DNA from: a bacterium
GTDB taxonomy: Bacteria; Patescibacteriota; Minisyncoccia; Phycocordibacterales; CAIZLB01
DNA length: 64,000 nucleotides
Reading direction: 5' to 3'
Assembly (NCBI GenBank): GCA_027490575.1
Contig: JAIXXV010000032.1
Location: 13,211-77,210, forward strand
Shown: one piece after another, positions 2,088-37,114 of the stretch
Numbering within the stretch: the stretch's first letter is position 1
Layout: every line of letters starts with the position of its first letter
The notes under the pieces: generated by a model
What the model was told of the DNA's origin: nothing
What the model saw: the letters and a program-made list of their open reading frames with translations, nothing else
Databases searched by the model: none
Translations under genes and position numbers: made by a program

Positions 2088-2699
2088 CTAACCCTGATTA
2101 AACTCACCCATTGCCTTTTCCCTACCTTCACTTATACACATGTAAATTGCTTCTGCGACTTTTTTTGATATTTTCTTTATCTCATCAAACTCAGCTGGCT
2201 TGAACTCACCTACTATAAAATCCATGATTTTATCTGAACCTGGCTTTTTGGGTTTACCAGAAGGAGTTGTTGGACATATGCCGACTTTTATTCTGGCAAA
2301 TGCTTCTGTCTTTATAGCTTTTTTTATTGACTCTATACCCCTGTGCCCACCTGATCCTCGATTGAAAAGTATTTTTATCTTTCCAATGGGCATATCTAGG
2401 TCGTCTTGCACGACTATCAGCTTTTCAGCTTTTTTTGCACTTGTCACCAAGGGTGCGACACTGGCACCAGACTTGTTCATATAGGTCTCAGGTAAAACGA
2501 GAGTGACTTTTTCTACACCTGTTTTTGCGTTTTCTGAATCAATCTCATCTTGAGAAATCATTGCCGAATACTTAGAACTTTTTACAAACTCAGGAAACTT
2601 ATACTTTTTTGCAAATTGTTCAACTCCAATACGACCAGCATTATGTCTGGTATTTTTGTACTCTTCACCTGGGTTTCCTAGTCCAACGACAATATACAT
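2088..2699 (-). CDS. pth: Peptidyl-tRNA hydrolase
   Basis: N-terminus MYIVVGLGNPGEEYKNTRHNAG matches the Pth signature (GLGNPG...RHN). Confidence 0.9.
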   Translation of the reverse strand: MYIVVGLGNPGEEYKNTRHNAGRIGVEQFAKKYKFPEFVKSSKYSAMISQDEIDSENAKTGVEKVTLVLPETYMNKSGASVAPLVTSAKKAEKLIVVQDDLDMPIGKIKILFNRGSGGHRGIESIKKAIKTEAFARIKVGICPTTPSGKPKKPGSDKIMDFIVGEFKPAEFDEIKKISKKVAEAIYMCISEGREKAMGEFNQG

Positions 2700-2751
2700 A
2701 TTATTTTATTTATATTTTGATTATAACATAAAAGTGTAGTATCATGCTGAT

Positions 2752-3303
2752 ATGAGTTTTTTATCAAGACAATTTAAAGAGTGGCGTTATACGATTTTGC
2801 TTTTCATTGTATTGATATCTATCCGACTATTTGTTGCAGAGCCATTTCTAGTTTATGGAAGTTCTATGGATCCCACGTTTACATCCGGTGATTATCTGGT
2901 GGTTGATGAGATAAGTTACAAGCTAGAAAATCCAAAGAGAGGTGAAGTCATAGTTTTCATACCACCATATGACAACACCAGACATTTTATAAAAAGGATT
3001 ATAGGGCTTCCAGGTGAGACAGTTATAGTTGATGGTTCAGTTATAAAGATTATAAATGACCAGAATCCAAAAGGATTTATCTTGGATGAGCCATATGTAA
3101 AGTTCCAGAGCAATAGAAAATCCACAGTAAAACTCAGCGAAAATGAGTATTATGTGGCTGGTGACAACAGAAATGTCAGCTACGACTCTAGAAGCTGGGG
3201 TGCCTTGCCATCTGAGAATATTACTGGTAGAGCATTATTGAGATTGTATCCTTTCCAAAGTATAGGTATACTCCCTGGAAATGAGCACATTACGGCTGAA
3301 TAA
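2752..3303 (+). CDS. lepB: Signal peptidase I
   Basis: N-terminal TM segment, the catalytic Ser motif GSSMDPTF, a Lys-box region and GDNRNVSYDSRSWG. Confidence 0.85.
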   Translation: MSFLSRQFKEWRYTILLFIVLISIRLFVAEPFLVYGSSMDPTFTSGDYLVVDEISYKLENPKRGEVIVFIPPYDNTRHFIKRIIGLPGETVIVDGSVIKIINDQNPKGFILDEPYVKFQSNRKSTVKLSENEYYVAGDNRNVSYDSRSWGALPSENITGRALLRLYPFQSIGILPGNEHITAE

Positions 3304-3432
3304 GGGCCAAATCCTGCATAATAGCCTTACATAGGCCGCAGACAGCTCAATGCAGGGCCAAGGGTCCAGATTTAGACGCAATATCGGACACAGCATATAG
3401 CTGGATTTAGCATAAATAAATCAAACAAAAAA

Positions 3433-4713
3433 ATGGCTGAGAAGAAAACAAAAAGCAAAACTGACCAAAAAAACATTTTGACTGATAAAAACCCAATTTT
3501 CAAAGGACATGAACATGCAAGCCACACTGCAAAACACTATGGCTTTCACCCATTTGCAGGACTACAGGTAGAAAAACAAGACCTGGTAAAAGCTAAAAAC
3601 TTCAAAGATAGTAAGAAAACCGCCTTCAACGACAAGGACTCTCTTTTGAGTTTTGATAAGTTACTTGAAGAGAAGATTGCCATCATGAGAATGTATGTCG
3701 AGAAACAAATGGCTGACATTCATCAACCACCGATGATTTCATACAGTGGTCCTCTTACTGGAAACCCTCATGCATCTGATAAAACTAAACTCAAGACATT
3801 TAACCTTGATATAGTTGCCAATCCAAAAAGTATTGCCGATGCACTAGTTATCGAAACAGCTTTTGTTATTTTGAAAGAGCAGATTGATGCTGATTCTGAG
3901 TTAATGATTGAGATAAACTCTATTGGAGATAAAGAATCATTCCAAAAATTCACTAAAGACTTGATAGTATTTTCAAAAAAGAGAGCGCCGGATATGCCGA
4001 CTAGCATCAGGCAAGCATTTAAGAAAGACCCTTTTACTTTGTACTCATGTAAAGACGAAGAGTGTCTAGCTATACAAGAAGAGGCTCCAAAGCCCATGAG
4101 CTACCTTTCAGAAGAAAGTCGTGATCATTTTAGAGAAGTACTTGAGTATATTGAGTCATTGTCTATCCCCTACACCATCAATCATTCACTTATAGGCAGT
4201 AGACACTATTCTTCTGGGACAATATTTCAAATCGTGAAAGTTCCGAAAGCAGGCAAAGGTCCAAAAGATGGCAAGATAAAAAGAGAGGTATTGGCTATTG
4301 GCGAAAGATACAACAATGTATCAAAGAAAGCTTGGAACAAAAAAGAAGTTCCTGCTGTTGGTGTAACAATGCTAATAGATGAAAAAGCTATAAAGAATCT
4401 ACCACCAAAAAAGATTATCATTGAAGAGGCAAAGTTTTACTTTATACAGCTTGGTTATGATGCAAAGCTAAAGAGTCTTTCTATTATAGAAATGCTTCGT
4501 GTTGCAAATATCCCTGTTCATCAATCTCTATCTAGAGATAAGATAACGAGCCAGCTTGCTGCCGCGGAGAAACTAAACGTACCGTATATCATCTTGCTTG
4601 GCCAAAAGGAGGCTATAGAAAACAGTGTAACTATTAGACATGTCCAGACTAGAGTACAGGAAACAGTAAAACTCCATGAACTAGTGGATTATATAAAGAA
4701 ATTATTAAAATAA
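3433..4713 (+). CDS. Histidyl-tRNA synthetase family protein (divergent HisS/HisZ-like)
   Basis: IGERYNNV...VPAVGVTMLIDE resembles class-II HisRS motif 3 (GGGRYD...vPavG). The C-terminal anticodon-binding-like segment is VPYIILLGQKEAIENSVTIRHV. Motif 2 is not obvious. Confidence 0.55.
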   Translation: MAEKKTKSKTDQKNILTDKNPIFKGHEHASHTAKHYGFHPFAGLQVEKQDLVKAKNFKDSKKTAFNDKDSLLSFDKLLEEKIAIMRMYVEKQMADIHQPPMISYSGPLTGNPHASDKTKLKTFNLDIVANPKSIADALVIETAFVILKEQIDADSELMIEINSIGDKESFQKFTKDLIVFSKKRAPDMPTSIRQAFKKDPFTLYSCKDEECLAIQEEAPKPMSYLSEESRDHFREVLEYIESLSIPYTINHSLIGSRHYSSGTIFQIVKVPKAGKGPKDGKIKREVLAIGERYNNVSKKAWNKKEVPAVGVTMLIDEKAIKNLPPKKIIIEEAKFYFIQLGYDAKLKSLSIIEMLRVANIPVHQSLSRDKITSQLAAAEKLNVPYIILLGQKEAIENSVTIRHVQTRVQETVKLHELVDYIKKLLK

Positions 4714-5164: not shown

Positions 5165-5569
5165 ATGAATACTTTATACACACAAGACACATTCGAAATA
5201 TCTACAACCGTAAAAAAGGCGCCTAAGATTGATGGCGCTCTTTTTTATAAGTTAAAAAACCATGTTTTAGGTAAGAACTATGACCTGAGTTTTGTTTTTA
5301 TCGGACAAAAGCGTATGAGACACCTGAATAACACTCATAGACGAAAAGATTATGCGACTGATATTTTGAGTTTTACTATTGATAATGAGAACGGAGAAAT
5401 ATTTATTTATCCAAAAAAAGCAGAACAAAAATCAAAAGATTTTGATAAAACTTTTAAAGAATATTTACCTTTTTTATTTATCCACGGGTTAATGCATTTG
5501 AAAGGATTCGAACATGGTAGTATTATGGATAGTGAAGAAGCTCGAGTTAGAAGCTTGTTCAAAGTTTAA
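5165..5569 (+). CDS. ybeY: Endoribonuclease YbeY (rRNA maturation factor)
   Basis: HGLMHLKGFEH matches the YbeY zinc-binding motif H-x3-H-x5-H. Confidence 0.8.
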   Translation: MNTLYTQDTFEISTTVKKAPKIDGALFYKLKNHVLGKNYDLSFVFIGQKRMRHLNNTHRRKDYATDILSFTIDNENGEIFIYPKKAEQKSKDFDKTFKEYLPFLFIHGLMHLKGFEHGSIMDSEEARVRSLFKV

Positions 5570-15684: not shown

Positions 15685-16128
15685 ATGGAAACCAAAAAAG
15701 TAGGAGCTGGTTTTGGAATAATGATACTCCGAGACAATAAAGTATTACTCGGACAAAGACACATTGACCCCGAGAAAGCTGACAGTGAATTAAACGGCGA
15801 AGGCACGTGGACTATGCCCGGAGGAAAACTAGAGTTTGGAGAAAGCTTCGAGGAAGGAGCAGTGAGAGAAGTTCAAGAAGAGACGGGTATAGATTTAGAC
15901 ATAAAGGATGTAAAGGTTATTAGTCTTTCCAATGATATGGTTCCGACTGCTCATTTTGTAACTATCGGTCTTTTGTGTTTAAACTGCCCACAAGATCCGA
16001 AAGTAATGGAACCTGACGAAATAACCCAGTGGAACTGGTTTGACTTAGAAAATCTTCCTGAACCACTTTTCGAGCCAAGTAGAAAGATTATTCAAAATTA
16101 TTTGAGCGGTGTGTTTTATAATGGTTAA
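15685..16128 (+). CDS. NUDIX hydrolase
   Basis: Nudix box GGKLEFGESFEEGAVREVQEETG. Confidence 0.8.
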   Translation: METKKVGAGFGIMILRDNKVLLGQRHIDPEKADSELNGEGTWTMPGGKLEFGESFEEGAVREVQEETGIDLDIKDVKVISLSNDMVPTAHFVTIGLLCLNCPQDPKVMEPDEITQWNWFDLENLPEPLFEPSRKIIQNYLSGVFYNG

Positions 16129-19975: not shown

Positions 19976-21379
19976 TTGTTATTAAGTAATAAATATGGCA
20001 TTATGTTTTATCTAAATAAATTGGCTTTTGCCGTAGCCTGTAAGCACCAAATGACTAAAAACAAGGATAAATTGAGAATATTATCAATAGAAACCAGCTG
20101 TGACGAGACAGCAGTTTCAATAATAGACGCTGAAGGAGGTGTTGATACACCTGTTTTCAAAGTTCTTGGAAATGCACTCTACTCACAAATAGACTTACAT
20201 GCCGAATACGGTGGTGTATTCCCGATGCTTGCCAAAAGAGAGCATGGTAAAAATCTGGTTCCACTACTTGATCAAGCAGTTGATATTGCTTTAAAATCAG
20301 CTGACATAACTGACAGTACTGCACAATCCACAGAATCACAAAACTCATTCACAAACCTCACCGAGCAAACTACTCTCATCACAAGCATCCTAGAGAAAGA
20401 GCAAGGTCTATCAGAGACTCTACTAAAATACCTTGAAGAAAATATAAATAAATTATCAAGTTTAAATATAGATTATATTGCGGTAACAAAAGGACCAGGG
20501 CTTGAACCCGCTCTTTGGGTAGGTATTAGTTTTGCAAAAGCACTTTCTATAGCTGTGCAAAAACCATTGATACCTATAAATCACATGGAAGGTCATATTG
20601 TTTCTGTTTTGACTGACGATACTCTGAACGGAGCCCCTAGCGACTCGGTAGAGCACAGAGTAAACTTCCCCGCTCTCGCATTACTAATCTCTGGTGGCCA
20701 CACCGAGCTAGTAGAATGCAAAAACTGGAATGAATACAAGATAATCGGACACACTGTGGATGATGCTATAGGTGAAGCCTTCGACAAAGTAGCTAGACTC
20801 ATCGGTATACCATATCCCGGTGGACCAGTCATATCAAAGCTTGCAAAGGAAAGTCGAGATCAAGACACAACTGCTGAATACGAAAGAACTCATGGAAACA
20901 GACCATGGTCACTCCCTCGACCAATGATACATAGTAAGGATTTAAACTTTTCGTTTTCAGGTATCAAGACCGCTGTTCTATACGCTGTTAGGGAAAAAAC
21001 AGCACAATCAAAGGGTGCAGAACTATCGGACACTGACAAAAAAACATTAGCAGAAGAATTTGAAAATGCTGTAACTGAAGTTATTATCAAAAAAACTGAA
21101 AGGGCCATTGAACAAACTCACTCCGAAACACTCATAGTGGGTGGCGGTGTTATTGCAAATACATACATACGAAATGAACTGAAAAAAATGATTTCAGAAA
21201 AGTTCTCACATGTATCACTTTTGATACCGACCCTTGATATGACAACAGATAACTCAGTCATGATTGGAGTTGCTGGGTATTTGAAAGCTATTTCTAAACC
21301 TGAAAACATCATCCTGCCTGGTGATATAGAAAAACTCACTGCACTTGGTGCCAAAGGTAGTCTTGGACTAGAAGAATAA
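19976..21379 (+). CDS. tsaD: tRNA N6-adenosine threonylcarbamoyltransferase TsaD (Kae1/Gcp family), with a ~60-aa low-complexity insertion
   Basis: RILSIETSCDETAVSIID...FPMLAKREHG...GPGLEPALWVGISFAKALS...LISGGHT. The true start is probably at MTKNKDKLRILSIE. Q/S/T-rich insert lies around residues 110-165. Confidence 0.85.
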   Translation: MLLSNKYGIMFYLNKLAFAVACKHQMTKNKDKLRILSIETSCDETAVSIIDAEGGVDTPVFKVLGNALYSQIDLHAEYGGVFPMLAKREHGKNLVPLLDQAVDIALKSADITDSTAQSTESQNSFTNLTEQTTLITSILEKEQGLSETLLKYLEENINKLSSLNIDYIAVTKGPGLEPALWVGISFAKALSIAVQKPLIPINHMEGHIVSVLTDDTLNGAPSDSVEHRVNFPALALLISGGHTELVECKNWNEYKIIGHTVDDAIGEAFDKVARLIGIPYPGGPVISKLAKESRDQDTTAEYERTHGNRPWSLPRPMIHSKDLNFSFSGIKTAVLYAVREKTAQSKGAELSDTDKKTLAEEFENAVTEVIIKKTERAIEQTHSETLIVGGGVIANTYIRNELKKMISEKFSHVSLLIPTLDMTTDNSVMIGVAGYLKAISKPENIILPGDIEKLTALGAKGSLGLEE

Positions 21380-21970: not shown

Positions 21971-23038
21971 GTGAAATCATTAAGGCAACTAAGTGTTGAG
22001 GTGAAAAAAATGGGCCGTGAACTCAGAGTGGTCACCCACGACGGCATGAGCCATCCAGATGAAGCATTTGTACTCGCCATGATCAAGTGGCTCTGTATCA
22101 ATGTTTTGAATGTCAAATACAAATTCAAACGCACACGGGATCCAGGCCTCATAAATGCTGCGGACATTGCAATCGATGTCGGCAACGTTTATGACCCTGA
22201 GCATTTCCGGTACGATCATCACGGTCCAGAAGGTGCTGGAAGGCGTCCTGAAAAGGCAGGTCACCAAGGAATCAGCTACTCTTCTTTCGGGATCTTTTGG
22301 AAAGATCATGGTCTAGAATTCGTATCAGGTGTCGTAAAAAAGCTTACTGATTACGAAATTCCAACATGGATACTTGAAAAAGCCGTTGGAGAAGTCGACA
22401 GAAATCTGGTTGAAGGGACATGCGCCTTAGATACCGGAGAAGCGAAGGTCAGGTCAAACAACATCAGAGTACCTTCGTTGCATTCAGCTTTTTCAGTAAT
22501 AAACCCGACGTGGATTGAGGCTTCCGGAAAAGATGCACGTGACAACGCGCTCTGGAACTCTCTTCCTATGATGGGTGACATACTGATTGGCTACATCATG
22601 AGGTCGGTCGAACATCACTACTCCGAAAGCTACGTGATGCAAGGAATCAATTCATGTCGTGACGGGATCTTGGTACTCAAAACACCGACCCAGGCATGGA
22701 GAAGACTTGTCAACAAATCAAGACGAGGGAATGAAATCCTTACTGTGGTTCAGCCACAGATGGATGACGCTCAAACTTGGTGTGTTCATGCGGTAGAGGA
22801 TGGAGAAGGTACTCTGAGGATTCGCTTTCCTGAAGAGTGGGGTGGTCTGGAGCAAGATAGCTTGCGTAGTGTCACTGGTAACGAAAAAGTAACCTTTGTA
22901 CACACAGCGGGTTTTATCGCTGCAGCTGAAGACAAACAAAGCGCGATTATGTTAGCAAAGCTGGGTATCGCCAAGTATCAAAAAGAAGACGAATACGAAG
23001 GGGCAGGTTTGGATTCAGAAACTGCTACCGTAAACTAA
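21971..23038 (+). CDS. MYG1/UPF0160 family metal-dependent hydrolase
   Basis: VVTHDGMSHPDEAFVLAMIKWL parallels the MYG1 N-terminal motif IGTHxGxFHCDEalAcxlLr. The likely start is MGRELRVV at ~22010. Confidence 0.65.
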   Translation: MKSLRQLSVEVKKMGRELRVVTHDGMSHPDEAFVLAMIKWLCINVLNVKYKFKRTRDPGLINAADIAIDVGNVYDPEHFRYDHHGPEGAGRRPEKAGHQGISYSSFGIFWKDHGLEFVSGVVKKLTDYEIPTWILEKAVGEVDRNLVEGTCALDTGEAKVRSNNIRVPSLHSAFSVINPTWIEASGKDARDNALWNSLPMMGDILIGYIMRSVEHHYSESYVMQGINSCRDGILVLKTPTQAWRRLVNKSRRGNEILTVVQPQMDDAQTWCVHAVEDGEGTLRIRFPEEWGGLEQDSLRSVTGNEKVTFVHTAGFIAAAEDKQSAIMLAKLGIAKYQKEDEYEGAGLDSETATVN

Positions 23039-31252: not shown

Positions 31253-31666
31253 TTAGATCCGTTGCAGAACTGACTTGGATGTTACTTTACCAGCTAATCC
31301 GAGAGAGAACCAGCGGTCAATTTTCAACGCCGCCTCGTGAGTGTCGCATTTTTCCATCACGGCAACGAAATCAAGTTGGTTACCACGGCACCTACATGCA
31401 TGGTTGTGACAGACCCAGCGATTCCTGGAGAGAGTCACTTTAAATACGTTTCCGCTATCGCCTGGGTGAATAGGACAAGGACCAACCAGACTACTGCCAT
31501 TGCGAGTTGGCTGCATTTTTGATTTGAAGCCGTAGTATCCCAACAACCTCTCTAGGGATACAGCGGCCTTAACCGCTTTAAGATCAATAGATATTCTCTT
31601 CATATACAGAACGAACAATTTGAGTTTATTGGGTATCTGCACTTTACAGACACTTCCACTACTCAT
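31253..31666 (-). CDS. Stand-alone CHC2-type zinc-finger protein (primase/TraC-like zinc-binding domain only)
   Basis: GPCPIHPGDSGNVFKVTLSRNRWVCHNHACRCRGNQLDFV matches the CHC2 zinc finger (CP.H.e.tpSf.v......w.CfgC...GD.i.F). GC is ~50% against ~38% background. The start overlaps the nudix stop by 4 nt (ATGA). Confidence 0.6.
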   Translation of the reverse strand: MSSGSVCKVQIPNKLKLFVLYMKRISIDLKAVKAAVSLERLLGYYGFKSKMQPTRNGSSLVGPCPIHPGDSGNVFKVTLSRNRWVCHNHACRCRGNQLDFVAVMEKCDTHEAALKIDRWFSLGLAGKVTSKSVLQRI

Positions 31667-32151
31667 ATTACCAGACCGTTGGCTTTATGTAAATTTGACA
31701 CCGGAGAAATGGATTGAAGGATTAACTCTTTATGTGATGGAATTAATCCGTCAGGAAGGTTGTTTAAGTTGAAAAATTCCGCTTCGATTATTTCCTTAGG
31801 ATCAAGCAATTGTGTTCCACCGGTGAGCCGTGCAACGAATGTAATCTCCAGACGCAATTTAAAGCCACTTTTAATTCGTAGTAATCGCTCCACATGAACC
31901 TCGTACCCAGTTTCTTCCTTTAACTCTCGTTGGACAGTCTGTTCTATTGTTTCGCCGGAAATTGCATACCCACTCGGTAACCCCCAAGAACCGGATTTCC
32001 AAAAACGGTGCCTTAAAAGTAAAATCCGACCATCATTATCAAACACCACTGCCGATGTACCTAAAATAAATTTTGAATGGAAAATCCAAAGTATTCTCCA
32101 CTGAAGATATCCTCCCATTTTTCTCCAAAAAGTTGCTAGTGTTGAATACAT
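31663..32151 (-). CDS. NUDIX hydrolase
   Basis: Nudix box GYAISGETIEQTVQRELKEETG. Confidence 0.75.
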   Translation of the reverse strand: MYSTLATFWRKMGGYLQWRILWIFHSKFILGTSAVVFDNDGRILLLRHRFWKSGSWGLPSGYAISGETIEQTVQRELKEETGYEVHVERLLRIKSGFKLRLEITFVARLTGGTQLLDPKEIIEAEFFNLNNLPDGLIPSHKELILQSISPVSNLHKANGLVI

Positions 32152-32160
32152 GGTGGTAAT

Positions 32161-34539
32161 TTATTTAGCAACCGCCACCGCCTCATCAAAAGCTATAGAC
32201 AACAACTTAGAGTATCCCTCACCTCCCATCGTCACTCCGTATATAACACCAGCACGTGACATTGTCTCTCTATTGTGAGTTATAAGTATAAGCTGTGAAT
32301 GTTTAGACAAAGCCTCAATCATATCTCCATACTTTCTAGAGTTAGCCTCGTCGAGCGCTGCGTCTGTTTCATCTAGTATTACAAATGGTGGTGGATTTAC
32401 CTGTGACATTGCAAAGAGTAGTGCAATAGATGTTAGCGCTCGTTCACCTCCTGAGAGCATTGTAAGTCCCTTTATGCGTTTATGTGGCAAAGAAACATTG
32501 ATCTCAATACCTTCTTCGGCCGGTTCGTCACCATCTAGCTCTTCAGCAAGAGCAACTGACAAGTCACCACTGTCATCCTCCAGGTCACCCTTCTTTTTCT
32601 TTCGCTTTATTTCTTTTATGAGTTTAAGCTCGGCTGTACCACCTCCAAACATTAGTCCAAAAAACTTTCCAAACTCTTTATTGATTTTAGAAATACCATC
32701 CTTGAAAAGTTCACTGAGTTTTTGATTTAACTCATCTATCAGAAGTTTCAATGATTCTGAAGAAGTTATCAAATCTTGTAGCTCTTTCGCCAAGAAAATA
32801 TCCCTTTCCTCCGCATCTTTGTATTCTCGAACTATATCGTCGCCTCCACCGCCACCCATTTCCTCAAGTCTGATCTTTGATTTTTCCACAGCACGTCTTC
32901 TATCCACTTGGGCATGTCTATCTTCGACAACAGAGAAGTCAACTTCGGCGTTTTCATAATCCACAGCGTCTCTACCAACAAGCATGTGCGCCTCTTGTAT
33001 TTCACTTTTAAATTCTTCCTCCTCAACTCGAAGTCTTTCTTCTTTGGCCTTTACGGTCTCTATATGAGAATGTAACTCATTTTGCTTGGACATTATCACA
33101 AGTACAGCCTTTTCACTTTCAACATTCTTATCACGTTCTTTGTCTATATCCACTTTTATCTGTGTATATCTTTCTGATTGCTTTAATTCTTCTTCAGAAA
33201 ATGTTCTGAGTTTTTCCTCAAGAGTTTTCATTTCCTCGGATATGCGCTTTATCTCAGCTTCCTCTGTCTCAGTGCTGTTTTGCGGCTTCTCAACGTGATC
33301 TGATTCTTTGTGATAATTTACAAAACTACTAATACGCTCATGAATATCTTGGATAGATTGTTTTACGTAAGCCAATCTTTGTTCTGGAGATGCATTTGCA
33401 TGATCACCAATGCCGTCTATGGCTTCCAGAGCAACAGTTGCTTTGACGTCTATATCTTTTTGAATGAGCTCCACATCTTTCAAGTAGACTTGCTTAGTAC
33501 TTTGCACATCAATGTGGTTTTCTGACTCCTTTATCTTTTTATCTATAACTCTTTTTAGATATGAAATCTCACCTTCTAGTCGCCCTATCTCCCTGGTGCA
33601 AGAGTCTTTCTTGGCTCTAGTATCTCGCATCTCTTGCTCAAGTGACAAGAGTCCAGACATACTACTGCTTTGCCCTAGGTTGGCCTTTGCTTCATCCAGT
33701 ATAGACTTGTGGTGAACTAGCTCTTGGTGCAACTTTTCTAGCTCTTCTTGCGGAGCTTTCTTTTCATTTGACAGTCTAGCTTTCTCCATTTTTATATAAT
33801 GATTTTCACGAGCAAAATACTCTTTGTACATACCAACCAACTCTTGGCGCAAAACCACAGCCTTTTCAATCTTCTCCACCTGCTTCTTCAAAAATTTTAT
33901 ATGTGGTGCGATCTCACGCCTAAGTGACTCAATCTCTTTGATGTGATTACCCGTTTTCTCTAGCTTCTTTTCACTTTCTTGTTTTTTGTATTGATACACC
34001 TTTAGACCTAGTGCATCCTCTATCATCTCTCGCCTATCTTTTGGTTGAGCTGACAAAAGTCTATCAGCTTCACCTTGCGAAATGATATGGTGACCAGACG
34101 AGCCTATATTGGCATAAGCCAAAAGCTCCACGACATCTTTTAGTCGCACAAGCGTGCCGTTTATAAAATACTCATTAACACCATCTCTATGGACCACACG
34201 CTCTATAGAAATCTCATCGAAGTCCATGTTGAACATCCGGTTCGTATTATCGAAAACAACTTTCACTGACGCCCTGTTTGCACGCGCACTGTCCTTACCT
34301 CCGTTGAAGATAAGATCCTCGCCTTTTTTCCCTCTCATAGACTTGAGTGATTGCTCACCAAGCACAAAACGAAAAGACTCCGCCACATTTGACTTACCCG
34401 AGCCGTTTGGACCAACAATAGATGTTATAGGAGAAGTGAAGGTCAAAGATCCCTTTTTTGAAAATGATTTGAATCCGTTTATTTCTAGGGATTTTAGACG
34501 TGAGACGAAGGACATGGTTTTACAGTTATCAGTTAGCAA
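32161..34539 (-). CDS. smc: Short SMC-family chromosome segregation ATPase (probable true start at Met 34516, MSFVSRLKSLEINGFKSF)
   Basis: N-terminal Walker A GPNGSGKSN, long coiled coils, and a C-terminal signature LSGGERALTSIALLFAM with Walker B FVILDETDAALD. The rnc-smc gene order is as in Firmicutes. The ORF-track start is an in-frame TTG. Confidence 0.75.
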   Translation of the reverse strand: MLTDNCKTMSFVSRLKSLEINGFKSFSKKGSLTFTSPITSIVGPNGSGKSNVAESFRFVLGEQSLKSMRGKKGEDLIFNGGKDSARANRASVKVVFDNTNRMFNMDFDEISIERVVHRDGVNEYFINGTLVRLKDVVELLAYANIGSSGHHIISQGEADRLLSAQPKDRREMIEDALGLKVYQYKKQESEKKLEKTGNHIKEIESLRREIAPHIKFLKKQVEKIEKAVVLRQELVGMYKEYFARENHYIKMEKARLSNEKKAPQEELEKLHQELVHHKSILDEAKANLGQSSSMSGLLSLEQEMRDTRAKKDSCTREIGRLEGEISYLKRVIDKKIKESENHIDVQSTKQVYLKDVELIQKDIDVKATVALEAIDGIGDHANASPEQRLAYVKQSIQDIHERISSFVNYHKESDHVEKPQNSTETEEAEIKRISEEMKTLEEKLRTFSEEELKQSERYTQIKVDIDKERDKNVESEKAVLVIMSKQNELHSHIETVKAKEERLRVEEEEFKSEIQEAHMLVGRDAVDYENAEVDFSVVEDRHAQVDRRRAVEKSKIRLEEMGGGGGDDIVREYKDAEERDIFLAKELQDLITSSESLKLLIDELNQKLSELFKDGISKINKEFGKFFGLMFGGGTAELKLIKEIKRKKKKGDLEDDSGDLSVALAEELDGDEPAEEGIEINVSLPHKRIKGLTMLSGGERALTSIALLFAMSQVNPPPFVILDETDAALDEANSRKYGDMIEALSKHSQLILITHNRETMSRAGVIYGVTMGGEGYSKLLSIAFDEAVAVAK

Positions 34540-34655: not shown

Positions 34656-35348
34656 CTACACCTCCCATCCCTTCAACTGTATAGCCTTCTGCGCCGCATC
34701 TTGTTCAGCCTCTTGTTTAGATTTACCCTCACCTGTTGTCACTAAGTCATCTTTCAAGTAAACACCAACTGTAAAAACTTTGTTGTGGTCTGGACCGATT
34801 TCTTTGATGATTTTATAAGATGGTGTTATAGCTGTTTTTTCTTGAGCTAATTCTTGGAAAAAACTTTTTGAGTCTATGAACTTTCTCTCAGCAATCATAT
34901 CGTCTGTAAGATCAAATAGCTGGCTGGCAACGAAGTCACGAGCTTTGTCATAACCACTGTCTATATATATGGCACCAATGATAGCCTCGAAAGCATTTGC
35001 AAGTATAAACTGCCTAGCGCGTCCCGTATCTTTTGCCTCACCTTTTGAAAGCATCATGAAAGAGTTCACGCCAAGCTTTTCAGCTGCAGTTGCCAATGTA
35101 TTTGAGTTAACCAGAGCCGATCTGTACGCAGTCAAATCACCTTCTGGCTTATCAGGGTACTTGTTGTATAGATAATCAGTGATGACGAGTTCGAGTACAG
35201 CATCACCCAAAAACTCCAGACGCTCATTGTGCTCCAGCTTTGTGTTTTTATTTTCGTTTAGATATGAACGATGGATAAATGCTTGCCTAAGCAAGTCTTT
35301 ATTGTTGAATTCTATAGCTATACTTTTTTCGAATATATTGAAATCCAT
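34656..35348 (-). CDS. rnc: Ribonuclease III
   Basis: RNase III signature ERLEFLGDAVLELVITDYLY and a C-terminal dsRBD. Confidence 0.9.
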   Translation of the reverse strand: MDFNIFEKSIAIEFNNKDLLRQAFIHRSYLNENKNTKLEHNERLEFLGDAVLELVITDYLYNKYPDKPEGDLTAYRSALVNSNTLATAAEKLGVNSFMMLSKGEAKDTGRARQFILANAFEAIIGAIYIDSGYDKARDFVASQLFDLTDDMIAERKFIDSKSFFQELAQEKTAITPSYKIIKEIGPDHNKVFTVGVYLKDDLVTTGEGKSKQEAEQDAAQKAIQLKGWEV

Positions 35349-35438: not shown

Positions 35439-36362
35439 TTAAGCTACCACGTTCTGTTTTTTAAGCAATATCTGTACCGCCTTCGTAACTATTGGCAAAA
35501 TGTCATTATAAAAATTGAGCGTTAGTAGATCTTTTGCATTAAACCACCTTGCATCTGTTAGTCCTCCACTGGTTCCAAGTGTAAGCGGTATAAAGTCGGA
35601 CTTTGCCAGGTAGTAACAAACTTGCTTTCGAATCTTGCCATCTTCTGGATGAGATGCAATGTACTCATTGTTAGCCAACTCTTCCTCTATCTCAATATCT
35701 ATACCCATCTCCTCCTTAATCTCACGCATGATGCCATCTTTCATATCTTCGTCACCTTCTAATTTACCTTTTGATAGAGTCCAGTGCCCAAAAACATCAT
35801 GAACTAGAGCGAACTGCATCTCACCATCGTGCATGGCATATACCACAGCACCTCCTAGTTTTTGTATTGGCATTTCTTCATAAGGAACTTCCTTTTTCTC
35901 CTTTTTTTGCTTTTTTGTAGAAACCTCCTCCTTTCCTGGCTCGCCCATCTCTTTGTAGACAGCACCGAGTACTCCGTTTACGAACTTGCCGGATGTTTCC
36001 CCTCCGAAAGACTTCGCCAGCTCAATAGCCTCGTTGATGGCCACTTTAGCTGGTACCTCCTTCCTATCGCCAAAAATTAGCTCAAAAAGGCCTATTCTGA
36101 GCACATTTCGATCAACTATCGCAATCTTGGGTATTGGCCACTCAGGAGCTGCTTTTTCAATGATTAGGTCTATTTCAGGGTTCTTTTTAACCACACCATC
36201 TACAATGTTTTTAATAAACGAAAAATCGCCCATACCAGGAGCGAATTCTTCAACATTTCTTTGAACAATTTCACCAACAACAGCAGAGTCTGAAATACCT
36301 CGAAAGTCTCTTTCGAAAAGTGATTGTAGTGCTATTGATCGTGAAAGGTGCCTATTTGCCAT
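35439..36362 (-). CDS. nusB: NusB (transcription antitermination) and NUDIX hydrolase fusion protein
   Basis: N-terminal ~140 aa is NusB-like (SRSIALQSLFERDF...AINEAIELAK). C-terminal ~150 aa carries a Nudix box (GKLEGDEDMKDGIMREIKEEMG). Confidence 0.7.
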   Translation of the reverse strand: MANRHLSRSIALQSLFERDFRGISDSAVVGEIVQRNVEEFAPGMGDFSFIKNIVDGVVKKNPEIDLIIEKAAPEWPIPKIAIVDRNVLRIGLFELIFGDRKEVPAKVAINEAIELAKSFGGETSGKFVNGVLGAVYKEMGEPGKEEVSTKKQKKEKKEVPYEEMPIQKLGGAVVYAMHDGEMQFALVHDVFGHWTLSKGKLEGDEDMKDGIMREIKEEMGIDIEIEEELANNEYIASHPEDGKIRKQVCYYLAKSDFIPLTLGTSGGLTDARWFNAKDLLTLNFYNDILPIVTKAVQILLKKQNVVA

Positions 36363-36447
36363 ATCAAAGATATATTTTTGTAACCAACCGAATATACTTT
36401 TAGTATATATTAAGTCGTATTGTTTATCAACCGTCTATATCAACCGC

Positions 36448-36678
36448 TTACTTTGTCTTTGTAGTCTTTTTAGCTTTACTTGTGACTTCTGCTTTGTCAG
36501 CTTTAGCTTGAATACCTAGAATATCTTTCCCTTTGTAAAAACCACAATGAGAACATGCGAGGTGTTTCTTCTTCGGCTGACCACATTTTTCACATAGGAT
36601 AAAGCCTACTCCAGAAAGGGCGTGGTGACTTCTTCGGTTCCGAGTGTGACCTCGGGTATGTCGCATTTGATTTACCAT
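36448..36678 (-). CDS. rpmF: 50S ribosomal protein L32
   Basis: RNRRSHHALS...CEKCGQPKKKHLACSHCGFYKG matches bL32 (RR.H.AL....C..CGe.k..HrvC..CGyY.G). Confidence 0.75.
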   Translation of the reverse strand: MVNQMRHTRGHTRNRRSHHALSGVGFILCEKCGQPKKKHLACSHCGFYKGKDILGIQAKADKAEVTSKAKKTTKTK

Positions 36679-36784
36679 AGATGACTATTATACTGATTTT
36701 AAGAAGGTTTGCAACAGGGCCAATGCGCTTGGTATTACGCGCGCATTTCCACGAGTTTTTCAGCGTACTTAGGAGTATTTGCAT

Positions 36785-36817
36785 AAAAAAAGGCTCTCCG
36801 GTACTGGACCGGGAGCC
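36785..36817 (-). terminator. Intrinsic terminator (minus strand) ending the GC-rich unit
   Basis: Minus-strand GGCTCCCGGTCCAGTACCGGAGAGCC followed by TTTTTTTATGC. Confidence 0.55.
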
Positions 36818-36898
36818 TAGGGGTTGATTAGGGCGAAATTCAATCATTATTTGTGAGACTTGGCTCAATGATTGGTTTCTATGTTCTTAGAAAAACTA

Positions 36899-37051
36899 TC
36901 AGCTTGCTCGGCCAGGCCTGCGACGAATGTGCCCGCCTGGGTTATCACGTTCGTCCAGGTAGTGAACCACCCTGTCGTGCTCGTTTCTTGGTGTACGCGG
37001 CCGCTTGTGGCCGTTTCTTGGATTCCGCTTTAACTGACGTCCTTGTGCCAT
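36899..37051 (-). other. GC-rich (~57%) unit encoding a 50-aa extremely Arg/Lys-rich ORF (MAQGRQLKRNPRNGHKRPRTPRNEH...) with an SD-like AAGGAAA, or alternatively a structured ncRNA
   Basis: Compositional outlier between rnhB and rpmF. An ATG at 37049-37051 is preceded by AAGGAAAtcgt. The terminator lies at 36785-36817. No confident match to a known ribosomal protein or RNA family. Confidence 0.3.
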
Positions 37052-37114
37052 ACGATTTCCTTTTTTTTCGATTTTATGTGTGACCATTGTCGACTCCTGC
37101 TACCAAGCAGAAAT

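Follow-up and report, generated by a model that had tools for sequence, protein, structure and literature searches.

A NusB–Nudix fusion widespread in Patescibacteria pairs an invariant predicted nucleotide pocket with a variable catalytic glutamate

We found that the gene at positions 35439..36362 (minus strand) of the window, by which we mean the whole 64-kb stretch of DNA analysed here, is a real fusion of nusB to a C-terminal Nudix domain, an architecture shown to be ancient and widespread within Patescibacteria. NusB is a core rRNA transcription factor conserved across bacteria. Judging from residue conservation among relatives, the conserved function of the added domain is probably the binding of a nucleotide or of an RNA 5' end, with hydrolysis being optional. 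The open reading frame (ORF) runs uninterrupted from an ATG start to a TAA stop and encodes 307 aa, in which Pfam recognizes two domains, NusB (residues 7–137; 111.6 bits against a cutoff of 23.1) and NUDIX (residues 172–285; 41.7 bits against 21.1). With 114.6 bits, the protein also clears the 88.35-bit cutoff of TIGR01951, the NCBIfam equivalog model for nusB. These matches bear out the first-pass annotation, which had read the protein as NusB with a C-terminal Nudix domain.

That annotation had also raised the possibility of a frameshift at the domain junction (~35900). The junction (nt ~35868–35948, linker residues ~139–165) contains neither a stop nor a frameshift, and the identical 307-aa protein is present in at least four independent assemblies, those of three SRA runs and GCA_027484805.1 among them, with the same neighbours. 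The idea that assembly or a frameshift artificially joined two adjacent genes can draw on a single related contig (L093), in which NusB and Nudix are called separately, but the same contig also carries a split smc and a fragmented rnc, so that indel errors in the assembly are the likely cause, and we rejected this case (P0266) as a natural split for this reason. Against an artefact stand hundreds of full-length homologues, 80 species loci and the recurrence of the same ORF in the assemblies mentioned above; we therefore consider an artefact ruled out, its residual probability being negligible.

The fusion is far from a local peculiarity. Of the 120 database clusters closest to it, 119 have both domains, and the survey across CPR genomes suggested by the first reading of the sequence recovered the fusion from Patescibacteria (Parcubacteria/Paceibacteria and relatives) in hundreds of protein clusters and at least 80 species-level genomes, persisting to ~32% identity across many named lineages. 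Some relatives carry a stand-alone nusB, either at the same rpmF-nusB-rnc position (L091) or elsewhere, and NusB can therefore do without the Nudix domain. Among the relatives examined, no credible natural split of the fusion was found: two further candidates for a split or for a free-standing form of the Nudix half (P0230 and P0212) were rejected as contig-end fragments. In databases the fusion proteins are labelled "NusB" only, which leaves a second domain hidden in thousands of entries, and the searchable literature yielded no relevant paper on a NusB–Nudix fusion. Within that literature, the fusion appears to be undescribed so far.

The genomic context is equally stable, the fusion sitting almost always in a cluster of the order rpmF-nusB::nudix-rnc(-smc). 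In the window, rpmF (ribosomal protein L32; Pfam Ribosomal_L32p) lies directly upstream at 36448..36678 (minus strand), an arrangement found in 77 of 80 species loci and in divergent members too. Downstream, at a distance of 90 nt, follows rnc (RNase III; 34656..35348, minus strand; Pfam Ribonuclease_3 and dsrm), which occupies this position in 79 of 80 species loci (the exception is a contig end) and again in divergent members; in one locus (L085), the rnc start overlaps the stop of the fusion gene by 11 nt. No terminator-like site was found on the minus strand of the fusion–rnc gap. A gene for an SMC-like ATPase (32161..34539, minus strand; Pfam SMC_N, residues 15–775) comes after rnc, as smc does in ~70 of the 80 loci. 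Two promoter-like sites on the minus strand, TTGCAA-16-TATAAT upstream of rpmF (36687..36714) and TTGATA-17-TATACT in the rpmF–nusB gap (36402..36430), are consensus matches only, and promoter and terminator scans of the region returned no sites above chance. The boxA-like motif GYTCTTTRANA (1 mismatch allowed) occurs 39 times in the window against 30.5 ± 5 expected matches, none of them upstream of the fusion gene, and we accordingly dropped boxA-based autoregulation and an rRNA leader in the window as candidates. The window contains two tRNAs only, and neither rRNA nor an S10 gene nor an rRNA leader was found within its 64 kb. A structured RNA in the 436-nt GC-rich gap between rnhB and rpmF was rejected as a candidate: there was no Rfam match even at E ≤ 1, and a search for structured RNA on both strands gave a fold z-score of −1.39.

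The N-terminal half (residues 1–138; 35949..36362, minus strand) aligns to Aquifex NusB (2jr0; E = 1e-20), in keeping with the similarity to NusB proposed at first reading. Its AF2 model shows seven helices across residues 2–138 (pLDDT > 86) in the all-alpha NusB fold, and Foldseek superimposes this half on M. tuberculosis NusB (1eyv) with a TM-score of 0.81. In the alignment with Aquifex NusB, F127 (codon at 35982..35984, minus strand) stands opposite F122, the residue (F122 in E. coli as well) that stacks on U8 of boxA and whose replacement in the F122D mutant renders NusB defective (PMC3177189). This phenylalanine is unchanged in 69/69 and 80/80 fusion proteins of two sets. The fusion also takes the same position between rpmF and rnc as the stand-alone nusB of the relative L091. 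Because the TIGR01951 score exceeds its cutoff, the fold is that of NusB, the boxA-stacking Phe is invariant and the locus position is that of a stand-alone nusB, we take the N-terminal half to be a true NusB and the fusion gene to be the probable nusB orthologue of its host, a Paceibacteria-type bacterium (Patescibacteria/CPR).

Between the two halves lies a K/E/P-rich linker (residues ~139–165; 35868..35948, minus strand) that is predicted to be flexible and disordered. Its pLDDT drops below 50 at residues 145–153 of the AF2 model, homologues have linkers of 14–48 residues, made up of 19% K, 15% E and 10% P, and its mean per-site entropy of 1.67 is the highest of the three segments.

The C-terminal half (residues 166–302; 35457..35867, minus strand) matches the Aquifex Ap4A hydrolase 3i7u end to end by profile (residues 2–130 of 134; E = 8e-27) and by fold (TM 0.86; 0.84 to 1vc8). 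In further profile matches (1vc8, 4e-17; 4ilq, 6e-17; 3u53, 3e-14; 1kt9, 3e-13), the Aquifex enzyme is followed by Ndx1, CT771 and NUDT2, in that order. On the basis of the end-to-end profile match and the TM-scores, we assign this half to the NUDT2/aq_158/Ndx1 branch of dinucleoside-polyphosphate (Ap4A/Ap6A) hydrolases; Nudix domains of the ligand-sensing NrtR type are also among its structural neighbours in Foldseek. The Nudix box (residues 199–221; 35700..35768, minus strand), GKLEGDEDMKDGIMREIKEEMGI, proved as canonical as had been claimed: the string GKLEGDEDMKDGIMREIKEEMG(I) fits GX5EX7REUXEEXGU exactly in a regular-expression search, its codons were checked against the sequence, and the full set of catalytic residues is present in the window's copy. 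The earlier suggestion of RppH-like chemistry at RNA 5' ends stands in part. It fits the NUDT2-type subfamily, human NUDT2 being able to turn ppp-RNA into p-RNA (PMC8616924), but with the RppH equivalog models of NCBIfam the Nudix half reaches 14–20 bits against cutoffs of 116–259. The count of three Nudix proteins in the window was correct, as the ORFs at 15685–16128 and 31663–32151 were both confirmed as Nudix and no fourth was found among the other scanned window ORFs of at least 110 aa. The best partial matches of these two free-standing proteins are RppH and NAD diphosphatase, and none of the three reaches an NCBIfam equivalog cutoff as a Nudix protein.

We compared the conservation of the nucleotide pocket with that of the catalytic residues. 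K198, Y234, K246 and Y285 map to K42, Y82, K89 and F128 of NUDT2, residues engaged in P1-phosphate binding and adenine stacking; in NUDT2, Lys42 and Tyr82 are the P1-phosphate ligands, and Tyr82 and Phe128 form the adenine-stacking aromatic pair (PMC4734340). All four are unchanged in 80 species of the fusion family, W194 and W273 are likewise invariant, and in the 41 clusters with a degenerate Nudix box the pocket residues are kept in 37–41. The glutamate of the "RE" pair, E214 (codon at 35721..35723, minus strand), behaves differently. It corresponds to E58 of NUDT2, whose replacement in E58A abolishes activity on ppp-RNA (PMC8616924), and it ranks with the more variable positions when close relatives are compared: Glu is found in 38 of 80 close species (replaced in 42/80) and in 12 of 51 divergent clusters (~80% replaced), the residues seen at this position being E, K, A, V and G. 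The Nudix-box triad is complete in 10/51 divergent clusters, 34/79 species representatives and 73/85 members of a second branch. Parsimony places ~22–24 state changes of E214 on a neighbour-joining tree built from short sequences, which may be poorly resolved, and this is close to the value for shuffled tips (26.9); for this reason we regard the site as labile and refrain from counting discrete loss events. Loss of the triad leaves the domain as constrained as before, with a Nudix/NusB identity ratio of 0.72 in degenerate lineages and 0.73 in intact ones. Such variability argues that hydrolysis is not what selection maintains, and the free replacement of the E58-equivalent beside an invariant pocket suggests that binding is the conserved property. 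The assumption of a hydrolase in the first-pass annotation thus probably does not hold family-wide, and the intact Nudix box of the window's copy may not imply that hydrolysis is in use. With its pocket otherwise invariant, this natural variant series at a single position makes binding versus hydrolysis directly testable.

The most likely mechanism, which we advance tentatively and at somewhat less than an even chance, is that the fusion acts as a boxA-tethered reader or processor of the 5'-polyphosphate end of pre-rRNA. The NusB half would, together with S10, bind boxA on the nascent pre-rRNA through its C-terminal helix α7 with the invariant F127. Since the linker exits straight from this boxA-binding helix, the Nudix module would stay within a few nanometres of the leader RNA bound there. 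Its invariant Lys/Tyr/Lys/Tyr pocket, together with the conserved Mg-binding Glu217/Glu218, could then recognize a purine nucleoside 5'-polyphosphate as ligand, most likely the 5'-terminal ppp (or an Np4-type cap) of the same boxA-bearing transcript. That this ligand would be an RNA 5' end rather than a free nucleotide is what we infer from the tethering and from the NUDT2/RppH precedent. In species with a full box, such as that of the window, the module would probably hydrolyse the end and leave a 5'-monophosphate, like NUDT2 and RppH, and this would tie the state of the leader 5' end to RNase III-dependent processing; in lineages lacking the E58-equivalent Glu, the module would probably only bind the end. 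boxA is located just downstream of the rrn promoter, and the NusB–boxA tether retains the leader next to the polymerase until formation of the leader–trailer helix for RNase III (PMC10250234). Against a mechanism at the 5' end speak the lability of E214 among close relatives and the scores of the Nudix half far below every RppH cutoff. In addition, the two free-standing Nudix proteins of the window could perform 5'-end chemistry instead, and the window is without an rRNA operon or boxA. In its fullest form, the proposal makes the Nudix module a built-in 5'-end reader/processor of the Patescibacteria rRNA antitermination complex: while NusB–S10 holds boxA, the module would capture the 5'-triphosphate (or Np4N cap) on that nascent transcript, converting it to a monophosphate in some species and sequestering it in others. 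We regard this form as possible though somewhat unlikely; if true, 5'-end status, antitermination and RNase III processing would be linked during transcription in a way not known before.

The same pocket might instead serve a soluble ligand. The module would then bind, and in some species cleave, Ap4A/Np4N, ATP/GTP or another nucleoside polyphosphate rather than RNA ends, either tuning NusB-dependent antitermination to nucleotide or alarmone status or clearing Np4N near the polymerase. The nearest characterized relatives are indeed Ap4A/Ap6A hydrolases acting on free dinucleotides, the Ap4A-type pocket never varies although catalysis can be dispensed with, a parallel to the non-catalytic CF Im25/NUDT21, which binds Ap4A at ~2.4 µM without hydrolysis (PMC2425470), and the NrtR-type structural neighbours point the same way. 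Such a sensor would, however, leave the covalent tether beside the boxA-binding helix unexplained, and no allosteric interface is evident, because the linker is predicted to be disordered and is variable in length. The (p)ppGpp hydrolysis proposed in the first-pass annotation would belong under this heading; nothing was found in its support, nor any specific resemblance to Nudix enzymes known to hydrolyse ppGpp. Overall, we consider a soluble ligand an unlikely but real possibility.

Two further readings were considered. As a structural subunit, the Nudix fold would be a protein–protein or protein–RNA scaffold of the Patescibacteria rRNA antitermination complex without any nucleotide ligand, analogous to SuhB in the E. 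coli rrnTAC, where an enzyme-fold protein is an integral subunit (PMC6614797, PMC6614801). The repeated loss of catalytic residues from a domain that remains equally constrained relative to its NusB half would suit a scaffold. Yet the invariant residues are exactly the phosphate-binding and base-stacking ones of Ap4A hydrolases, plus the Mg-binding E217/E218, a pattern that speaks for a nucleotide pocket having been kept rather than for a generic interaction surface, and makes a pure scaffold improbable. Slightly less probable still is a functionally independent fusion, in which nusB and the gene of a housekeeping Ap4A hydrolase became joined as the genome was compacted and each half works on its own. 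Patescibacteria genomes are compact, the linker is long, disordered by prediction and poorly conserved, and relatives with a stand-alone nusB exist; on the other hand, the fusion has been kept down to ~32% identity across many named lineages with no credible natural split, and a housekeeping hydrolase would not tolerate free substitution of a key catalytic Glu beside an invariant pocket. The radiation-wide covalent link of NusB to an Ap4A-hydrolase-type pocket suggests that rRNA synthesis and processing are wired either to transcript 5'-end chemistry or to dinucleoside-polyphosphate signalling in these minimal-genome bacteria, the cellular roles of both being still debated.

The first 138 residues share with NusB (TIGR01951/PF01029) a score above the equivalog cutoff, an all-helical fold, helix α7 (KFVNGVL) with the boxA-stacking Phe and the rpmF-nusB-rnc locus, but canonical NusB has ~140 aa and ends after helix α7, whereas the fusion adds a linker and a 140-aa Nudix domain. 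The 16S rRNA methyltransferase RsmB/Sun likewise consists of an N-terminal RNA-binding domain of NusB fold followed by an enzyme domain acting on rRNA. In the fusion, however, the C-terminal domain is Nudix, and Pfam detects no methyltransferase domain; RsmB models match the N-terminal NusB-like part only (profile positions to ~145 of ~440), far below cutoff, and the N-terminal half scores 114.6 bits as true NusB versus 57.5 bits as RsmB N-domain. SuhB resembles the fusion as an enzyme-fold protein integral to a NusB-containing antitermination complex (PMC6614797, PMC6614801), yet it has the unrelated inositol monophosphatase fold and is a separate polypeptide. For the degenerate family members, CF Im25/NUDT21 provides a precedent by functional analogy only: in this subunit of an RNA-processing machine, a Nudix fold without the catalytic Glu residues binds Ap4A and ATP and leaves them unhydrolysed (PMC2425470), but the protein is eukaryotic, acts in 3'-end processing, binds its ligand in a different geometry and has no NusB fusion partner. 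The eukaryotic decapping enzyme Dcp2, which the fusion matches by sequence profile as well as by fold, also places a helical N-terminal domain before a Nudix domain acting on RNA 5' ends; the N-terminal domains are unrelated and two-domain superpositions give an rmsd of 10–14 Å, making this an architectural analogy and not whole-protein homology.

Closest to the Nudix half are the NUDT2-type hydrolases (human NUDT2, Aquifex aq_158, T. thermophilus Ndx1, Chlamydia CT771 and the C. elegans Ap4A hydrolase), which it matches over the full length in profile and fold. It carries their WTxxKG motif, their Lys and Tyr ligands of the P1 phosphate and their second stacking aromatic, and the window's copy has the complete Nudix box as well. 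Unlike the fusion, these are free-standing single-domain enzymes with a conserved catalytic Glu; the fusion family replaces the E58-equivalent in about half of the close species and in most divergent clusters. RppH, a Nudix enzyme related to the Ap4A hydrolases, converts 5'-ppp RNA to 5'-p RNA (PMC8616924). The fused domain is no RppH member by equivalog cutoffs, and RppH itself has no tether to an RNA-binding factor, but by analogy an RppH-type conversion is the activity that the fusion would most plausibly carry out in cis.

The nusB::nudix gene occupies positions 35439-36362 on the minus strand as an uninterrupted reading frame of 307 codons with an ATG start. The first-pass annotation, which omitted the strand, had proposed NusB with a C-terminal Nudix domain, and profile searches bear this architecture out: Pfam NusB matches residues 7-137 (E = 4.5e-32; 111.6 bits against a cutoff of 23.1), Pfam NUDIX matches residues 172-285 (E = 1.4e-10; 41.7 bits against 21.1), and TIGR01951, the NCBI nusB equivalog, scores 114.6 bits (cutoff 88.35). 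RsmB models cover only the NusB-like part of the protein and score far under their cutoffs. The Nudix box previously described as canonical proved to be an exact GX5EX7REUXEEXGU at residues 199-221. An AlphaFold2 model built from a 69-sequence alignment (mean pLDDT 91.2) places seven helices in residues 2-138, followed by a disordered stretch (residues 145-153, pLDDT below 50) and an alpha/beta/alpha Nudix fold at residues 166-302. The linker ranges from 14 to 48 residues among homologues, has a high K, E and P content, and is less conserved than either domain.

The first-pass annotation had also raised a frameshift or sequencing error at the domain junction. The uninterrupted frame speaks against this, as does the identical 307-aa protein, which three SRA runs and GCA_027484805.1 yielded independently, with the same flanking genes each time. 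Moreover, both Pfam domains are present in 119 of the 120 best-matching clusters (67-100% identity, about 300 aa) of a 5.8-billion-protein database; those clusters that their source names are called just "NusB". We therefore assign an artefactual joining of nusB and nudix next to no probability. An exhaustive search across 1.84 billion representatives clustered at 50% identity yielded 153 matches at E ≤ 1e-30, among them ~59 full-length fusion clusters, down to about 32% identity. Among GTDB species representatives, at least 80 loci carry the fusion, all listed ones full-length with 57-81% identity and with titles including Kaiser-, Nomura-, Taylor-, Adler-, Zambryski-, Yonath- and Lloydbacteria, Paceibacteria and Parcubacteria. 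A second branch, 36% identical to the window protein, bears names including Giovannonibacteria, Komeilibacteria, Pacebacteria and "Microgenomates" and contains a UniRef entry.

Many third-party MAG records of the fusion (L005-L084) are titled 'uncultured Candidatus Saccharibacteria bacterium', and all specifically named lineages among these titles are Parcubacteria/Paceibacteria groups; the Saccharibacteria title may be a generic submitter label and should not be taken to show the fusion in that group. Apparent free-standing Nudix halves were contig-end fragments or came from one error-prone contig (L093; ENA contig_145057), where NusB and Nudix are called separately, 16 nt apart, at 2523-3438. 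Because smc is also split there, into overlapping ORFs, and rnc is fragmented, these separate calls are likely due to indel errors rather than natural. Three homologues from apparently AT-rich lineages (P0244, P0252, P0270) have NusB followed by a C-terminal region of ~200 aa with a long K/E/N-rich low-complexity insert and at most barely recognisable Nudix similarity; they may represent the extreme end of a degeneration series.

On the minus strand, the gene order is rnhB, rpmF (L32), nusB::nudix, rnc (RNase III), an SMC-like ATPase, a second Nudix gene and a CHC2 zinc-ribbon gene. Upstream rpmF is found in 77 of the 80 species loci listed and immediately downstream rnc in 79, the sole exception being a contig end. 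Both flanks also hold for a degenerate-box member and for the 36%-identical member, in which rnc overlaps the fusion stop by 11 nt; a scan of the gap between fusion and rnc found no terminator-like site. A stand-alone 144-aa nusB occupies the same position between rpmF and rnc in one relative, which supports the fusion as a nusB orthologue. For the NusB half, alignment with Aquifex NusB gives E = 1e-20, and the predicted model superposes on M. tuberculosis NusB with a TM of 0.81. The crystal structure of NusB-NusE-boxA shows Phe122, in the C-terminal helix a7, stacked against U8 of boxA, and an F122D substitution renders the protein defective (PMC3177189). Alignment with Aquifex NusB places F127 of the window protein at this position, invariant in 69/69 fusion proteins and in 80/80 of the listed species set. 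The linker starts directly after helix a7, the boxA-binding helix by homology.

The remaining window content is ordinary housekeeping (S1, Pth, YbeY, FtsA/Z, LeuRS, ThrRS, DnaE, GyrB, RNase R and others); no NusA, NusG, S10, RNase J/E/Y or rRNA was found within the 64 kb. RNA-processing enzymes are abundant, with a MYG1/UPF0160-family protein (21971-23038, plus; 155 bits), the rRNA-maturation endoribonuclease YbeY (5165-5569, plus), RNase III, RNase R and RNase HII. TsaD (tRNA t6A; 19976-21379, plus, 467 aa) matches its domain at residues 146-431 only, leaving about 145 N-terminal residues unaccounted for, perhaps a further fusion. The SMC-like protein (32161-34539, minus, 792 aa, TTG start; called at 761-784 aa in other assemblies) matches Pfam SMC_N at residues 15-775 and gave no Pfam hinge match at E ≤ 0.001; possibly it is a type of SMC characteristic of the lineage, hinge-less or with a very short coiled coil. 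Directly after it follow the second Nudix gene (31663-32151, minus, 162 aa), best matched in NCBIfam by NAD+ diphosphatase (52 bits against a cutoff of 158), and, overlapping this by 4 nt, the DnaG-type CHC2 zinc-ribbon gene (31253-31666, minus, 137 aa); tblastn (E ≤ 1e-5) recovered the former in one and the latter in none of 80 related loci. The rnhB-rpmF gap (36679-37114) is unusually long at 436 nt, with GC peaking at 0.54 (36875-37024) compared with roughly 0.38 in the background. Within the gap lies a very basic 50-aa ORF (36899-37051, minus; MAQGRQLKRNPRNGHKRPRTPRNEH...) preceded by a Shine-Dalgarno-like AAGGAAA and called as a gene in an independent assembly. The gap and ORF gave no Pfam or Rfam match and no significant RNA fold (z = -1.39); relatives carry yceD or an unannotated gene of 171-240 aa in this position.

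By sequence and by fold, the Nudix half belongs to the NUDT2-type dinucleoside-polyphosphate hydrolases. Its profile aligns end to end with Aquifex Ap4A hydrolase (E = 8e-27); the next matches, in order, are Ndx1 (Ap6A hydrolase), Chlamydia CT771, human NUDT2 and the Ap4A hydrolase of C. elegans, with Dcp2 after these. Foldseek gave TM values of 0.86 to 3i7u and 0.84 to 1vc8. No NCBIfam equivalog cutoff was reached, that of RppH included. Aligning the family with PDB sequences equates K198, Y234, K246, Y285 and E214 with NUDT2 K42, Y82, K89, F128 and E58, and E218 with Ndx1 E50. Lys42 and Tyr82 of NUDT2 serve as ligands of the P1 phosphate, and adenine is sandwiched between this Tyr and a second Tyr/Phe (PMC4734340); the E58A mutant has no activity on ppp-RNA (PMC8616924). 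The ATP complex 1vc9 was made with Ndx1 mutant E50Q.

The window protein keeps the complete Nudix box. Of 51 divergent representatives that align well, 10 keep the Glu triad (E214, E217, E218) intact and 41 have it altered; two of the latter retain E214 (replacements I, K, V, A). Within this altered class, K198 is K/R and Y234 is Y/F in all 41, K246 is K/R in 37 and Y285 is Y in 39. The Nudix/NusB identity ratio is 0.72 in the altered versus 0.73 in the intact class, so the Nudix half is equally constrained relative to the NusB half in both. Across 79 species representatives plus the window protein, position 214 is E (38), K (17), A (8), V (8), G (4), S (2), I (2) or N (1); it ranks 32nd of 137 in variability within the domain, and its states require about as many changes on the tree as shuffled tips. 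These same proteins show no variation at W194, T195, K198, Y234, K246, W273, Y285 or E218, and 77/80 have an acidic residue at position 217. The second branch has an intact triad in 73/85. We read these patterns as suggesting that selection maintains the Mg-polyphosphate and purine binding pocket, with efficient hydrolysis being optional and lineage-specific.

In E. coli, boxA lies just after the rrn promoter, and NusB-boxA is thought to anchor the leader to the polymerase for as long as the trailer takes to emerge and the RNase III leader-trailer helix to form (PMC10250234). NUDT2, said to be the nearest counterpart of RppH among human Nudix proteins, converts ppp-RNA to p-RNA (PMC8616924). 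With boxA and the leader so arranged, a pocket for nucleoside polyphosphates, held close to the boxA-binding helix by a short flexible linker, would be in a good position to encounter the 5'-triphosphate of the transcript carrying that boxA, or a cap-like end. The Nudix module would hydrolyse this end in the window's species and only bind it in many relatives. A cis-acting 5'-end reader or processor is our leading, if tentative, candidate for the single most likely function. A third Nudix gene (15685-16128, plus, 147 aa) has as its top NCBIfam hit a partial match to RNA pyrophosphohydrolase (43 bits; the cutoff is 116); it is a candidate stand-alone RppH-like enzyme and would compete with the 5'-end hypothesis. 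A sensor or local hydrolase of free Np4N/NTP is a less probable function, with a precedent in CF Im25, which binds Ap4A without hydrolysis (PMC2425470). That the Nudix half is a purely structural subunit, SuhB-like by analogy, seems unlikely, and a functionally uncoupled fusion slightly more so.

NusB and Nudix domains are textbook families, and their fusion is abundant in databases under the name "NusB". We found no description of it in the literature searched, and a large survey of the Nudix clan (PMC5389931) makes no mention of NusB or antitermination. The fusion connects a factor at the core of rRNA transcription with the chemistry of 5' ends or of dinucleoside polyphosphates, and offers a natural variant series in which the key Glu is present or replaced.
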